Assembly: GCF_022846255.1 (NCBI RefSeq) | Contig: NZ_AP025682.1 | Source: Escherichia coli | GTDB taxonomy: Bacteria > Pseudomonadota > Gammaproteobacteria > Enterobacterales > Enterobacteriaceae | DNA: 64,000 nt | Strand: one strand, 5' to 3' | Part shown: one piece after another, positions 4,188 through 61,045 of the stretch | How the letters are laid out: each line of letters begins with the position of its first letter | Numbering within the stretch: the first letter of the stretch is position 1 | Notes under the pieces: generated by a model | The model's database searches: none | What the model was told of the DNA's origin: nothing | The model's input: the letters and a program-made list of their open reading frames with translations, nothing else | Program-made: the position numbers and the translations under genes

Positions 4188-5423
4188 ATGACGGAACAAG
4201 AAAAAACCTCCGCCGTGGTTGAAGAGACCAGGGAGGCCGTGGACACCACGTCACAACCTGTCGCAACAGAAAAAAAGAGTAAGAACAATACCGCATTGAT
4301 TCTCAGCGCGGTGGCTATCGCTATTGCTCTGGCGGCGGGCGTCGGTTTGTATGGCTGGGGTAAACAACAGGCCGTCAATCAGACTGCCACCAGCGATGCC
4401 CTGGCTAACCAACTTACGGCACTGCAAAAAGCCCAGGAGAGCCAAAAAGCCGAGCTGGAAGGCATTATCAAGCAACAAGCTGTACAGCTTGAGCAGGCGA
4501 ATCGTCAGCAAGAAACGCTGGCAAAACAGCTGGATGAAGTCCAACAAAAGGTCGCCACCATTTCCGGCAGCGATGCTAAAACCTGGCTGCTGGCCCAGGC
4601 CGATTTTCTGGTGAAACTCGCCGGACGGAAGCTGTGGAGCGATCAGGACGTCACGACCGCTGCAGCGTTGCTGAAAAGTGCAGACGCCAGCCTGGCGGAT
4701 ATGAATGACCCGAGTCTGATTACCGTTCGCCGGGCAATTACCGATGATATCGCCAGCCTTTCTGCGGTATCGCAGGTGGATTATGACGGTATCATCCTTA
4801 AGCTTAATCAGCTTTCAAATCAGGTAGATAATCTGCGTCTGGCCGATAATGACAGCGATGGTTCGCCGATGGATTCCGACGGTGAAGAGCTTTCCAGTTC
4901 CATCAGCGAATGGCGTATCAATCTGCAAAAAAGCTGGCAGAACTTTATGGACAACTTCATTACGATTCGCCGTCGTGATGACACCGCCGTACCGCTGTTA
5001 GCGCCAAATCAGGATATCTATCTGCGCGAAAATATTCGCTCTCGCCTGCTGGTCGCAGCACAAGCTGTACCGCGTCACCAGGAAGAGACTTATCGCCAAG
5101 CGCTGGAGAACGTCTCCACCTGGGTACGTGCTTACTACGATACTGATGATGCCACCACCAAAGCGTTCCTCGACGAGGTGGACCAGTTAAGCCAGCAAAA
5201 TATCTCGATGGATCTTCCGGAAACCCTGCAAAGCCAGGCGATGCTGGAAAAATTGATGCAGACCCGCGTGCGTAACCTGCTGGCACAACCGGCAGCAGGG
5301 ACAACGGAAGCTAAACCTGCACCTGCACCTGCACCTGCACCTGCACCTGCACCTGCACCTGCACCTGCACCTGCACCTGCACCGCAAGCTGATGCTCCGG
5401 CAGCCGCGCCGCAAGGAGAATAA
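4188..5423 (+). CDS. hemX: HemX (uroporphyrinogen-III methyltransferase homolog / membrane protein) with C-terminal (Pro-Ala)11 tract
   Basis: 411-aa ORF following hemD; N-terminal TM segment, coiled-coil-like Q/A-rich region, C-terminal PAPAPA repeat. Confidence 0.9.
5316..5381 (+). repeat. Perfect tandem hexanucleotide repeat (CCTGCA)x11 inside hemX 3' end
   Basis: Directly visible: cctgca repeated 11 times, in frame, encoding (PA)11. Confidence 0.97.
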
Positions 5424-51748: not shown

Positions 51749-53176
51749 ATGAGCGATAAAAAGAAGCGCAGTATGGCGGGTTTGCCGTGGATCGCGGCGA
51801 TGGCCTTCTTCATGCAGGCACTTGATGCCACTATTCTGAATACCGCCTTACCCGCAATCGCTCATAGCCTTAATCGTTCTCCTCTCGCGATGCAATCAGC
51901 CATCATCAGTTATACGCTGACGGTGGCGATGCTTATTCCGGTAAGCGGATGGCTAGCCGATCGCTTCGGTACGCGTCGCATATTTACCCTTGCCGTGAGT
52001 CTGTTCACGTTGGGTTCTCTGGCCTGCGCACTTTCTAACTCGCTACCACAGCTGGTTGTCTTCCGGGTTATTCAGGGGATAGGCGGCGCAATGATGATGC
52101 CTGTTGCTCGGCTGGCCTTACTGCGCGCTTATCCTCGTAATGAGCTTCTTCCTGTATTGAATTTTGTCGCCATGCCGGGTCTGGTGGGGCCAATTTTAGG
52201 CCCCGTTCTTGGCGGCGTGCTGGTCACCTGGGCAACCTGGCACTGGATATTTTTAATCAATATCCCCATAGGTATTGCGGGCCTTCTTTACGCGCACAAA
52301 CATATGCCCAATTTCACCACCGCACGACGCAGATTCGATACCACTGGCTTTTTGCTGTTTGGCCTCAGCCTTGTTCTCTTCTCAAGCGGAATAGAGCTAT
52401 TCGGGGAAAAGATTGTCGCCAGCTGGATTGCCTTGACGGTAATTGTCACCAGCATCGGGTTACTGCTTCTCTATATTCTCCATGCGCGACGCACGCCAAA
52501 CCCATTAATTTCATTAGATTTATTTAAAACCCGCACTTTCTCGATCGGTATCGTAGGCAATATTGCAACCCGTCTGGGGACCGGCTGTGTACCGTTCCTT
52601 ATGCCATTGATGTTACAGGTAGGATTTGGGTATCAGGCGTTTATTGCTGGCTGTATGATGGCACCGACAGCGTTAGGTTCCATTATTGCAAAATCGATGG
52701 TTACCCAAGTCTTACGTCGTCTGGGCTATCGCCATACGTTAGTGGGGATCACGGTGATTATAGGGCTAATGATCGCTCAGTTCTCTTTGCAATCACCAGC
52801 AATGGCGATATGGATGCTGATCTTGCCGTTGTTTATATTAGGGATGGCTATGTCGACACAATTTACCGCGATGAATACCATCACACTTGCCGATCTGACC
52901 GATGACAACGCCAGCAGCGGTAACAGTGTTCTGGCGGTCACGCAGCAACTGTCGATCAGTTTAGGCGTTGCTGTAAGTGCGGCAGTCCTTCGCGTTTACG
53001 AAGGGATGGAAGGCACAACGACAGTCGAACAGTTCCACTATACGTTTATCACGATGGGCATTATTACTGTTGCTTCAGCAGCAATGTTCATGCTACTGAA
53101 AACAACCGATGGTAATAATTTGATCAAAAGACAGCGTAAATCTAAGCCGAACCACGCTCCATCAGAATCGGAGTAA
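51749..53176 (+). CDS. hsrA: MFS transporter HsrA (YieO), 14-TM drug-efflux-like
   Basis: 475-aa hydrophobic ORF; matches HsrA; 3' end overlaps rbsR 3' end. Confidence 0.9.
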
Positions 53177-54134
53177 GTTGTAATCGTTGTTGCTGTAGGG
53201 CCGGCTGGGTTATCCGATGGATGAGTACATCAATCGCCAGCTCCCCCAGTTCATCTTTCGGTTGGTGGATAGTTGTTAATGGTGGCGTCATAAAGCTTGC
53301 CAGTTCGATATCGTCATAGCCAATCACCGCGATATCCTGCGGAACCTGTAACTCTGCCTGATATAACGCCTGGTAAACGCCAACAGCCATAGCGTCATTT
53401 CCGGTAAAGACAGCCTGAGGACGCAGCGGATGTGATAACAGTTGGCGCATGGCGTCAAACCCGCCGTTAAATTCAAAATCACCTGTGACTTCATAGCCAT
53501 CAGGAATGTTGAGACCCGCACGTTTCATCGCCGCCCGATAACCTTCCAACCGCAGGCGCGCCGGAGTTTTATCCAGCGGACCGGTAATACAGGCAATACG
53601 GGTATGACCTTTATCGATCAGATATTGCGTTGCTAAGTCTCCGCCCAGCAACGAGTTATCCTGAATAAGATCGCTGTCGCCATCGAACGGAGCCCAGTCC
53701 ATCATCACGGTAGGCACTGTCGGATAACGTTGCATGATTTCACGCGAAGGCTGATGCGTTTCGGTGCACAGTAACAGCAAGCCATCAACGCGTTTTTGCA
53801 TCAGCGTTTCCAGATTACGATTCATCCGCTGTTCATCGCCTTCGGTATTGCAAAGGACAAGACTATAACCGCGTTCGAAGCAGCTGCGTTCAACGCCACG
53901 CACCAGTTCTGAATAGAAAGGATTGGTACTGGCAGTGATCAACATGCCAATGGTATGTGTTTGATTGAGTTTGAGGCTACGCGCCAGAGCTGATGGCGCG
54001 TAATTGAGTTCTTTAATCGCCGCTTCAACTTTGGCTGTAATCGCTTCACTGACGAAGCGATCTTTATTGATAACGTGAGAAACTGTTGAGGTAGAAACGC
54101 CCGCCAGGCGGGCAACATCTTTCATTGTAGCCAA
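53142..54134 (-). CDS. rbsR: Ribose operon repressor (LacI family)
   Basis: 330-aa [32 protein letters not shown]... (HTH); last gene of rbs operon. Confidence 0.95.
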
Positions 54135-54137
54135 GCG

Positions 54138-55067
54138 TCACCTCTGCCTGTCTAAAAATGCGTCGATCTCTTCACGCCACGGTACGGAAGGTTGTGCGCC
54201 TTTACGTGTTACGGCAATCGCAGCGGCTGCATGGGCAAAACGAATCGCCTCTGGCAATGTTTTTTCTTCCAGCAACGCCGTGATTAACGCGCCGTTAAAG
54301 GTATCTCCGGCAGCAATGGTATCGACAGCCTGCACCCGGAATCCAGGAACGCGCTGACCTTCACCATTCACGCTAGCCCATACACCACGACTTCCTAAAG
54401 TAATCAGTACAGTACGGATACCTTTTTCATGCAGTACCTGCGCCGCCTTCGCTGCATCTTCATCATTTTCAACACGAATACCGGTGAGCTTTTCTGCTTC
54501 CGTTTCGTTTGGCGTAATAATGTCCACCAGCGCCAGAAGTTCGTCAGGAAGTTCACGAGCCGGAGCCGGGTTAAGCGCAACGATAGTCTTATTTTGATGG
54601 GCGATTTTCGCCGCTGCCATCACACTTTCGAGTGGTGATTCCAGCTGCATTAATAATGCCGACGCGTTGGCAATACGCTCACGTTGCGCTTCCACCAGCG
54701 CCGGGGAAAGGGCAGCATTAGCGCCGGCATGAATACCGATGACATTCTCACCTTCGCCATTAACAAAAATCAGCGCCACACCTGTTGATTCGCCTTTGAT
54801 CACGCTGACCGGAGAAATATCGATGTTATCAGTGGCGAGCTGCTGACGTACGCTCTCGCCAATGCTGTCATCACCCGTACAGGCAATAAACGCGATATTC
54901 GCACCGCTACGCCCAGCAGCCACAGCTTGATTCGCGCCTTTGCCGCCAAATGCAACCTGATAGTGGTTACCGGTTACGGTTTCGCCTGGAGTAGGAAAAG
55001 ATTGAAGATTAAGAATGTGGTCAGCATTAATGCTGCCAAGAACAACGAGGCTGCCTGCGTTTTGCAT
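54138..55067 (-). CDS. rbsK: Ribokinase
   Basis: ORF 54138..55094; start at MQNAGSLVVLGSINADHILN (309 aa). Confidence 0.94.
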   Translation of the reverse strand: MQNAGSLVVLGSINADHILNLQSFPTPGETVTGNHYQVAFGGKGANQAVAAGRSGANIAFIACTGDDSIGESVRQQLATDNIDISPVSVIKGESTGVALIFVNGEGENVIGIHAGANAALSPALVEAQRERIANASALLMQLESPLESVMAAAKIAHQNKTIVALNPAPARELPDELLALVDIITPNETEAEKLTGIRVENDEDAAKAAQVLHEKGIRTVLITLGSRGVWASVNGEGQRVPGFRVQAVDTIAAGDTFNGALITALLEEKTLPEAIRFAHAAAAIAVTRKGAQPSVPWREEIDAFLDRQR

Positions 55068-55192
55068 ATTCGGGATGTCCATAAAATGCGCCACCGTGTT
55101 AGGGTGGCGCGTGCCCTGCTTTTCTTTATATTACACGTTCATCTGTCGATGCCGTATTTATGTCACCATCAGGTCATACAACCTGATTAAAA

Positions 55193-58590: not shown

Positions 58591-59010
58591 TCAGAACGTC
58601 ACGCCAGCACAGAGAATGATATTCGCATACGGAGAACATTCTCCGCTGCGAATTACCGCCTGACTTTCTGCGGTTTGTTGTTTGAATTGTTCATGCGTGG
58701 TGTAACGAATTTCAATGGTATTTCCCTGGTGTTTTTGCAGCTGCTCAAGGTGAGTGAGCAACGTTTCGTGGAGTTGCGGATTATGTTGTTTGATCTCCTC
58801 CGCGATAATGGCAGCCTCGACCTGCATTTCATTTGTGACGACGTCCAGCACCTGCATAAAAGAAGGTACACCCTGGGTTAATGCCATATCGATACGCGTT
58901 GTACTTTTGGGGATGGGTAAACCAGCATCACACACCACCAGCGTATCGGTATGTCCCAGACGGGAGATCACCGATGAAATATCAGAATTAAGAACGGTGC
59001 CTTTTTTCAT
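58591..59010 (-). CDS. rbsD: D-ribose pyranase
   Basis: ORF 58591..59022; start at [24 protein letters not shown] (139 aa); SD ggagaaa upstream. Confidence 0.93.
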
Positions 59011-59020
59011 TTTTTTCTCC

Positions 59021-59040
59021 ATCAGCGAAACGTTTCGCTG
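59021..59040. promoter_or_regulatory. Perfect 20-bp palindrome tcagcgaaacgtttcgctga in rbsD 5' UTR; probable RbsR (LacI-family) operator
   Basis: Sequence is its own reverse complement; central CGAAACGTTTCG fits the LacI/PurR-type operator pattern; 11 nt upstream of rbsD ATG. Confidence 0.65.
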
Positions 59041-59134
59041 ACCCGCAGTTTAATCCTGACTGAGTTGGGAAAACCATCGTGACGTTACGGAAATGTGATC
59101 AACCTCGAAACGTTTTACATGGTGATTAACCATG

Positions 59135-59170
59135 AAAACAAAAACGCCCCCTTATGGAGAAAGGAGGCGT
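59135..59170 (-). terminator. Putative intrinsic terminator downstream of kup
   Basis: Minus strand hairpin acgcc(tcc)...(ggg)ggcgt followed by tttttgtttt, 7 nt after kup stop. Confidence 0.5.
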
Positions 59171-59176
59171 CTGGCG

Positions 59177-61045
59177 TTAGATTTCGACCTGAGTACCCAG
59201 TTCGATAACCCTGTTTGGCGGGATTTCAAATTGATCCGGCGCACGCAGCGCATTACGTTGCAACAGCAAGTACAGCTTACCGCGCAGACGCAAATACCAC
59301 GGGCGTTTGCCGAGGATCAACGACTCATGCGACATAAAGAAGGAGGTTTCCATCATCCGGCAACTTAATCCTTCCAGACCGCAGCGGTGGAATACTTCTT
59401 CCACGTTTGGCGTTTCTCGCCAACCATAACTTGCCACCACGCGCCAGAACGTCGGCGACAGTTGTTCAATCTGTACCCGACGGACGTTATGGACATAAGG
59501 CGCGTCTTCGGTGCGCAGAGTTAACAGAATCACCCGCTCATGCAATACCTTGTTATGTTTAAGGTTATGCATCAGCGCAAAGGGAATGACGTTGATTGCA
59601 CGTGACATATACACCGCGGTCCCGGGCACGCGAACGGGCGGTGATTTCTCCAGCGAAGCAATCATCGCCTCCAGAGAGTTACCATGTTCATGCATCCGCC
59701 GCAGCAAACGGAAACGTTCGCTCTTCCAGGTGGTCATCACGATAAACATCACCGTACCGAGGCTCAATGGCAACCAGCCGCCGGAGAGCAGTTTATCGAG
59801 GTTAGCGGTGAACAATGGAATATCGACACAAAGGAAAGCAATCAGGATCAGCGCAACAAAATACTTATTCCAGTGCCAGTTCTGACGTGCCACGGTAGTC
59901 GAGAGAATAGACGTCAGCACCATGGTTCCGGTCACCGCAATCCCGTACGCCGCCGCCAGGTTGCTGGAGTGCTCAAAGCTGACAATCACAATCACGACCG
60001 CGACATAGAGCATCCAGTTCACAAACGGAATATAGATTTGCCCTGACTCCATTTCGGAGGTGTGAATAATGCGCATCGGCGACAAATATCCCAGACGTAC
60101 CGCCTGACGCGTCAATGAGAAGACGCCAGAGATAACAGCCTGCGAGGCGATTACCGTCGCCAGTGCGGCGATGATCAGCAGCGGGATCAGCGCCCAGTCC
60201 GGGGCCAACAGGAAGAACGGGTTCTTAATTGCTTCCGGGTTCTTTAACAACAGCGCTCCCTGACCGAAGTAATTAAGAGTTAAGGAAGGCAATACGACGG
60301 TGAACCACGCCAGACGAATCGGGAACTTACCAAAGTGCCCCATATCAGCATACAGCGCCTCGACCCCCGTAATCGACAGCACCACTGCCCCTAATGCAAT
60401 AAAAGAAACCGTTTTGTATTCAAGGAAGAAATGCACCGCCCACATCGGATTCAGCGCATGCAGCACTTCCGGGTTAGCAATAATGCTACGTAACCCCAGC
60501 CCAGCCAGAATCAAAAACCAGGTCAGCATGATCGGCGCAAACAGCTTACCGACCATAGCCGTGCCATGTTTTTGAATCATAAATAATAAAGTGAGAACGA
60601 TAATTGAGAGGGGAACTATCCAGGTATCCAGCTGCGGGGCGACGATTTCCAGACCTTCAATGGCTGACATCACCGAAATAGCGGGTGTTATGACGACTTC
60701 ACCATAGAAAAAGCTGCCGCCGATTAGCCCCATAATCACCAGCATTGATGTGGTTCGCGCCGACGTATTGCGCCCGGCAAGCGACATCAACGTCAGGATC
60801 CCCCCTTCACCGGCGTTATCTGCCCGCATCACGAAGGTGAGATATTTAATGGAAACCACAAAGATTAGCAGCCAGAAGATCAGCGATAAAAAGCCAAACA
60901 CGGCATCGCGTTCAACGCCAAAACCAAACTGGCCGGACAAACATTCACGAAGTGTATATAACGGGCTGGTACCAATATCGCCGTAGACAACTCCAATCGC
61001 CGCGAGGGTAATCGCGGGCAATGATTGCTTATTATCAGTGCTCAT
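59177..61045 (-). CDS. kup: KUP-family low-affinity K+ uptake transporter
   Basis: 622-aa [35 protein letters not shown]...; matches Kup/TrkD. Confidence 0.95.

Follow-up and report, generated by a model that had tools for sequence, protein, structure and literature searches.

A conserved RbsR-type site overlapping a CRP-like site upstream of rbsD, and its altered form in Escherichia

The ribose operon rbsDACBKR of Escherichia coli is preceded by a perfect palindrome and, further upstream, by a second sequence that resembles it. This arrangement raises the question of whether the second copy is an operator for the repressor RbsR in its own right and, if so, how such a site would act on the promoter that lies between the two. 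The original prediction for this locus proposed cooperative binding or DNA looping by RbsR. Here, we analyze the region within a 64,000-nucleotide stretch of E. coli DNA (the window), combining the local sequence with a comparison of rbsD upstream regions across Enterobacterales.

The window contains the kup-rbsDACBKR locus. Gene identities were assigned from open reading frames and NCBIfam models, and all of these genes, including rbsA and rbsC of the same operon, lie on the minus strand (Table 1). A 401-bp piece around both sites has 100% matches in many complete E. coli genomes, in which it is labelled kup / rbsD, and 5104 of 5411 E. coli genomes share at least 99% identity over the 130-bp control region. 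The K-12 record holds no regulatory annotation over the kup-rbsD stretch. The rbsD start codon occupies 59010..59008 on the minus strand, so the second copy lies upstream of the promoter in the direction of rbs transcription. Read along the rbs strand, the elements follow one another as the kup stop codon, the kup terminator (59172..59142), TGTAAAACGTTTCGAG, GTTGATCACATTT, ATGGTTTT, TAAACT, TCAGCGAAACGTTTCGCTGA, T-GGAG, and ATG.

Table 1. Positions of the genes and control elements considered here, in window coordinates (operators are designated O1 and O2)
Feature	Position	Strand	Basis or remark
kup	59177..61045	-	ORF and NCBIfam
kup intrinsic terminator	59142..59172	-	terminator prediction; upstream bound of the rbs control region
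O2, weakened Escherichia form, TGTAAAACGTTTCGAG on the rbs strand	59104..59119	.	conservation; putative auxiliary RbsR-type operator
CRP-like 22-mer, AAATGTGATCAACCTCGAAACG on the + strand	59091..59112	.	centre 59101.5, inferred -61.5 (Class I)
CRP-like cores on the + strand	TGTGA 59094..59098, TCGAA 59105..59109		pattern TTCGA-N6-TCACA on the rbs strand
Conserved block ATGGTTTT in the -35 place	59070..59077	-	near-invariant columns in the 80-sequence profile
Inferred -10 hexamer TAAACT	59047..59052	-	constant position across species
Inferred transcription start, +/-2 nt	59040	-	from the -10 position
O1 = rbsO, primary RbsR operator, 20-bp perfect palindrome TCAGCGAAACGTTTCGCTGA	59022..59041	.	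unique exact match
rbsD Shine-Dalgarno GGAG, 1 nt past the palindrome	59017..59020	-	TGGAG conserved
rbsD, D-ribose pyranase, operon gene 1	58591..59010	-	NF008761, E = 7e-67
rbsK	54138..55094	-	ORF and NCBIfam
rbsR, 330-aa cognate LacI-family repressor, last operon gene	53142..54134	-	NF007743 RbsR, 697 bits, full length

The palindrome in the rbsD leader

The element closest to rbsD is exactly self-complementary over 20 bp, as had been predicted. It is centred at 59031.5, and the range originally given for it (59021..59040) is off by 1 bp. The full sequence TCAGCGAAACGTTTCGCTGA occurs once in the window with 0 mismatches, and shuffled windows yielded zero matches to it with 3 mismatches allowed. 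Conservation centres on the inner 16 bp, AGCGAAACGTTTCGCT (59024..59039), which are retained in all but two of 90 Enterobacterales sequences, and the 14-mer GCGAAACGTTTCGC inside it (59025..59038, 0 mismatches) is identical in 90/90. This element follows the operator pattern of RbsR and the LacI-GalR family, namely an even-length palindrome with a central CG and the core AAACGTTT set between CG/CG (GCGAAACGTTTCGC). It sits between the inferred -10 hexamer and the Shine-Dalgarno sequence, and rbsR is present in the same operon.

Published work identifies the protein that binds here. A 2.1 Å crystal structure of RbsR with rbsO used the oligonucleotide GTGGGTCAGCGAAACGTTTCGCTGATGGAG (bioRxiv 10.1101/2025.04.02.646877, 2025 preprint), and an rbsD probe from Serratia is shifted by the Serratia RbsR in EMSA, an effect undone by ribose (PMC5601083). 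The crystallized 30-mer matches the window at 29 of 30 positions, with one flanking base different, and K-12 at 30 of 30. Gene context, the co-crystallized oligonucleotide, and the place between the -10 hexamer and the Shine-Dalgarno sequence agree in identifying the palindrome as an RbsR operator, which is what the original prediction had expected. Mauzy and Hermodson reportedly described rbsO as the RbsR operator in 1992, in an abstract said to place the operator across the start site, and the inferred start position agrees with that statement. The palindrome is thus the already known operator rbsO, and there is nothing new in O1; O1 is the identical element, whereas O2 falls outside rbsO as described. 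All 20 bp are symmetric (TC...GA) in Escherichia and in a few other sequences; in most genera the symmetry stops at 16 bp, with AG following, so that the right end reads ...CGCTAG.

The palindrome could also be read as RNA, in the form of a 5'-terminal hairpin that stabilizes the rbsD mRNA or tunes access to the Shine-Dalgarno sequence. The predicted centroid structure does begin, at the extreme 5' end, with an 8-bp stem closed by a 4-nt loop (-10.7 kcal/mol), ending 1 nt before GGAG. We nonetheless give this reading almost no credence, for the whole 61-nt leader has a z-score of only -1.33 and the outer two pairs are lost outside Escherichia, where TC...GA becomes (T/C)C...AG. Moreover, the inner 16 bp never vary and hence offer no covariation, O2 has the identical core although it is not transcribed, and it is the palindrome as DNA that was co-crystallized with RbsR. 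The hairpin is at most a side effect of the operator.

Conservation of the second site

The second copy, O2, is centred at 59111.5, or about -71.5 in the numbering explained below. The near-copy ctcgaaacgtttta that had been noticed is present, although its coordinates should read 59104..59117 instead of 59103..59116. The distance of 65 bp first attached to the pair fits neither the spacing between centres (80 bp, from 59031.5 to 59111.5) nor the gap between the sites (62 bp). The shared sequence CGAAACGTTT occurs three times in the window, once per strand within the palindrome and once at 59106..59115. In shuffled sequence, its mean was 0.29 matches per 64 kb over both strands, and 0/100 shuffles reached three.

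For the comparison across species, rbsD loci were taken from 80 species-level Enterobacteriaceae genomes, and the 180 bp upstream of the start codon were aligned. With the window included, exactly two AAACGTTT cores lie upstream of rbsD in 81/81 sequences. The upstream site reads (G/T)CGAAACGTTTCGA in 75 of the 81, a form that contains the perfect 12-bp palindrome CGAAACGTTTCG, and GTAAAACGTTTCGA in all six Escherichia sequences of this set. A first search for RbsD homologs returned Enterobacteriaceae only, and a representative search returned mostly sequences of about 50% identity; the RbsD of Dickeya (P0128) was used as a stepping stone to outgroup genera. The same layout was found in nine further genera (Dickeya, Pectobacterium, Brenneria, Lonsdalea, Yersinia, Serratia, Cronobacter, Cedecea, and Buttiauxella), and in Pectobacteriaceae it is kept although the upstream gene there is not kup. 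Altogether, two cores 77-80 bp apart precede rbsD in 90/90 Enterobacterales upstream regions, and the 12-bp core of O2 is perfect in 83/90, the exceptions belonging to Escherichia and Yersinia. A scan of about 480 kb of loci for 14-mers no more than 2 mismatches away from GCGAAACGTTTCGC found them at the O1 and O2 positions only.

The conservation of O2 is distinct from that of its surroundings. In a profile of 80 sequences anchored on O2, the information content is 0.38 bits per position in the upstream flank, 1.70 in the distal half of O2, 1.85 in its proximal half, 1.57 in the remainder of the CRP site described below, and 1.07 further downstream. CRP cannot account for the conservation of the distal half (GCGAAA), which falls beyond the 22-bp CRP site, and the difference between 1.70 bits there and 0.38 bits in the flank exceeds what neighboring elements explain. 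Judged by this comparison of sequences, the upstream near-copy is not a product of chance. The second operator-like site of the original prediction therefore holds as a conserved RbsR-type site across Enterobacterales, but in E. coli itself the distal half is degenerate and the core matches at 10/12 positions.

Two loci call for separate mention. One member of the class at about 50% identity (locus L091, RbsD P0127) has a single site in a different arrangement and is uninformative. In a contig of the Yersinia pseudotuberculosis type (L084:1-3420), rbsD is followed by two PfkB fragments, rbsACB is absent, and kup is split into two ORFs. Its O2 carries 2 mismatches (GCGAAGCGTTTCGG) and its CRP half-site is weaker, with O1 intact; the rbs operon of Y. 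pseudotuberculosis looks decayed.

A CRP-like site overlapping the second site, and two ways O2 might act

The original prediction overlooked a CRP-like site that shares the promoter-proximal half of the second copy. This site has a well-conserved half, TCACA followed by TTT, and the promoter-proximal half of O2 doubles as its weak half. It matches the CRP core at 8/10 positions, with one half, GATCACATTT, perfect, and TCACA keeps a constant 10-bp offset between the CRP centre and the O2 centre in 90/90 sequences. Allowing up to 2 mismatches, the core pattern was observed 20 times in the window against 25.9 expected, which is no enrichment, and the assignment to CRP consequently rests on conservation, position, and the literature. 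In that literature, the activity of the rbsD promoter is linear with CRP-reporter activity and with added external cAMP (PMC4304618). The half common to both sites is always GTTTCGA, as RbsR requires, with no drift toward the CRP consensus TGTGA.

The geometry of the promoter is similarly constant. A sigma-70 consensus scan found no promoter in the region because there is no -35 match, and the promoter was placed instead by a conserved -10 hexamer (TAAACT, TACACT, or AATACT), which stands at a constant position in 77/90 sequences. The distance from the CRP-like centre to the first base of this hexamer is 49.5 bp in 74/90 sequences, and from its last base to the O1 centre 14.5-15.5 bp in 86/90. 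Assuming that +1 lies 7 nt after the hexamer, the CRP-like site is centred at -61.5, O2 at -71.5, and O1 at +8.5 to +9.5; in the window, O1 would be centred at about +9.5 and cover approximately +1 to +20. The block ATGGTTTT in the -35 place matches TTGACA at only 0-2 of 6 positions, and it might be contacted, as part of a CRP-dependent promoter, by the alpha C-terminal domain or by sigma region 4. An imperfect 12-bp palindrome, CGTGACGTTACG (59078..59089, centre about -43.5), separates the CRP site from the -35 region and is conserved in Escherichia, Enterobacter, and Citrobacter and not in Klebsiella or Raoultella.

On this basis, we propose, with confidence slightly better than even, that a CRP-dependent Class I promoter lies between two RbsR operators, of which O1 blocks the polymerase and O2 is an auxiliary site that excludes CRP. 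When ribose is absent, an RbsR dimer on O1 would block RNA polymerase at the start site, and ribose would free O1. At O2, the auxiliary operator, the promoter-proximal half GTTTCGA would double as the weak left half-site of CRP. Major-groove contacts of a LacI-family dimer fall about 3-7 bp on each side of its centre, and those of CRP about 4-8 bp on each side of its own. With centres 10 bp apart, the proximal recognition helix of RbsR and the distal one of CRP would thus compete for the same base pairs in the same major groove, and RbsR at O2 would exclude CRP. This would add a second layer of repression, anti-activation in the absence of ribose, and ribose would clear O1 and O2 alike. We infer both RbsR binding to O2, from its sequence and conservation, and mutual exclusion of RbsR and CRP, from the geometry of the two sites. 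The two-operator design would be ancestral to Enterobacterales, with the O2 core equal to the O1 core; in Escherichia two distal core positions have changed.

A more specific version of this proposal, which we hold only tentatively, is that the 26-bp O2/CRP composite is a conserved competitive switch between RbsR (no ribose) and cAMP-CRP (ribose, no glucose) that Escherichia has retuned. If true, sugar-specific and global signals would be wired together at the level of DNA, and the half-site competition would illustrate, in compact natural form, how a repressor can act by keeping an activator off. Escherichia would then offer a naturally occurring retuning experiment, in which a weaker O2 and the full 20-bp symmetry of O1 would alter how strongly CRP sets expression of the ribose system.

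The same architecture was initially taken to suggest cooperative binding of O1 and O2 with the 80 bp between them looped, as at lac O1-O3 or gal OE-OI. The two sites do have the same core, across 90 species the spacing stays within 77-80 bp, and the layout is lac-like: the main operator is near +10, the CRP site at -61.5, and the auxiliary operator further upstream. The spacing itself follows from three separate anchors (O2 to CRP, CRP to the -10 hexamer, and the -10 hexamer to O1), and no loop is needed to account for it. Looping of lac in vivo has optima about every 11 bp, one of them near 81.5 bp, and 79-80 bp is not clearly out of phase with that value; at 10.5 bp per turn, however, 79 bp corresponds to 7.5 turns and would put the sites on opposite faces. 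Helical phase thus does not settle the matter. The protein itself argues against a loop. A lac-type loop calls for a repressor that holds two operators at once, which RbsR does not appear equipped to do: it aligns to positions 6-330 only of the 358-position LacI model, its 330 residues ending without the C-terminal tetramerization segment, and it is dimeric from 10 nM to 3 uM (bioRxiv 10.1101/2025.04.02.646877). In addition, the LLhR chimera (LacI DNA-binding domain, RbsR core) is described in the literature as having no dependence on operator spacing, and cooperative site pairs of LacI-family regulators cluster at 13, 22, and 32 bp (PMC4052901). With a dimeric repressor, no LacI tail, and a chimera indifferent to spacing, we consider cooperative binding or looping improbable. 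The promoter-proximal half common to O2 and the CRP-like site makes competition with CRP the more natural reading.

Comparison with better-known systems sharpens this distinction. In the lac control region, O1 is centred at +11, the CRP site at -61.5, and the auxiliary operator O3 at -82. The rbs region resembles it in having a main operator just past +1, a Class I CRP site at -61.5, a weaker auxiliary operator immediately upstream of that site, and a LacI-family repressor. Two differences stand out. The lac O3 adjoins the CRP site, with about 20 bp between centres, and tetrameric LacI loops O1 to O3, whereas O2 overlaps the CRP site, with 10 bp between centres, and RbsR is a dimer without the tetramerization tail. 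Several LacI-family proteins act against CRP, including GalR at gal OE, AscG at ascFB, and CytR in its complexes with CRP. The likeness to these lies in a LacI-family protein placed beside or over a CRP site and hindering CRP-dependent activation. CytR, however, sits between two CRP sites and needs contacts with CRP, and GalR loops with HU, whereas the two rbs sites have one half-site in common, an arrangement that would imply plain competition.

Part of this picture was probably available in existing catalogues. The RegPrecise RbsR regulog lists 17 sites for 11 Enterobacteriales regulons under the same motif (Ravcheev et al. 2014, PMC4052901), so some double sites upstream of rbsD have probably been recorded already. 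That paper does not discuss the overlap with CRP, the 77-80 bp architecture, or the Escherichia-specific degeneration, and our literature search on a second rbs operator, an RbsR-CRP overlap, and degeneration in Escherichia found nothing explicit. As far as its sequence tells, O2 would be an auxiliary LacI-family operator that interferes with CRP, of a kind already known, and modestly new as a site.

The Escherichia form of O2

The O2 core is TAAAACGTTTCG in E. coli and CGAAACGTTTCG, identical to the O1 core, in other genera. In the distal half, Escherichia has GTAAAAC where the ancestral form is GCGAAAC, with C to T at -6 and G to A at -5 from the centre. The E. coli site consequently matches CGAAACGTTTCG at 10 of 12 core positions, and its 14-mer, with 3 mismatches, is by itself at the level of chance, given 6 such RbsR-like 14-mers observed in the window against 5.6 expected. 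Positions -5 and -6 are contacted by the recognition helix in related LacI-family complexes, as in the PurR-DNA structures. By analogy with PurR, changes at these positions would probably make O2 of E. coli weak. It is thus probably a weak putative site that contributes little beside O1, and RbsR binding there may be negligible in this genome. Such weakness is consistent with the databases, which annotate only one RbsR site at E. coli rbsDACBKR (PMC3505978), and a degraded copy would explain that single annotation.

A possible, though in our estimate not the likelier, interpretation goes one step further: the second copy in E. coli would be the distal part of a CRP site together with the vestige of a lost operator, and RbsR would act through O1 alone. 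The single annotated operator fits this interpretation, as do the alteration of 2/12 core positions in all Escherichia sequences and the 3 mismatches of the 14-mer from consensus, a level at which chance yields about 5.6 per window. The pattern of variation, on the other hand, counts against this interpretation. Within Escherichia (7 sequences), the distal half varies at 0/8 positions and the adjacent flank at 7/16 (p about 0.03, by our own hypergeometric estimate). The degenerate distal half also falls outside the CRP 22-mer, and the near-identity of the region across the E. coli genomes noted above counts against decay as well. Compared in this way, O2 of E. coli appears to be still under constraint and not simply decaying.

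If our proposal of an auxiliary, CRP-excluding O2 holds, these observations suggest that what the E. coli model presents is no more than a degraded copy of a design with two operators, one that Salmonella, Klebsiella, Enterobacter, Citrobacter, Serratia, Dickeya, and other genera retain intact. Escherichia, in which O2 is weakened, is also the genus whose O1 is most symmetric. The Escherichia-specific distal half TGTAAAAC (59112..59119) resembles GATAAAAC, which we take to be the half-site of the MalI operator.

Other RbsR-like sequences in the window were considered and set aside. The 14-mers with 3 mismatches at 5026, 54235, 58756, and 63444 were rejected, as they occur at chance level. The one at 58756..58769 (ACGAAACGTTGCTC on the rbs strand) lies inside rbsD at about +278 and is identical in 60/90 species, synonymous positions included; it encodes the conserved peptide LHETLL and, being at chance level in the window, is rejected as an operator at present.

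Finally, one E. coli genome has an altered kup-rbsD spacer. In E. coli PEC209 (NZ_CM168015.1; L092:2460-2565), the promoter between the two operator cores is lost, the cores acting as direct repeats of 10 bp; this case, found in 1/5411 genomes, could be an assembly artefact. The deletion is of exactly 80 bp between the two AAACGTTTCG cores, equivalent to window positions 59032..59111, with the junction ATGTAAAACGTTTCG joined to CTGATGGAG. It removes the CRP site, the -35 region, and the -10 hexamer, and shortens the kup-rbsD spacer from 166 to 86 bp.
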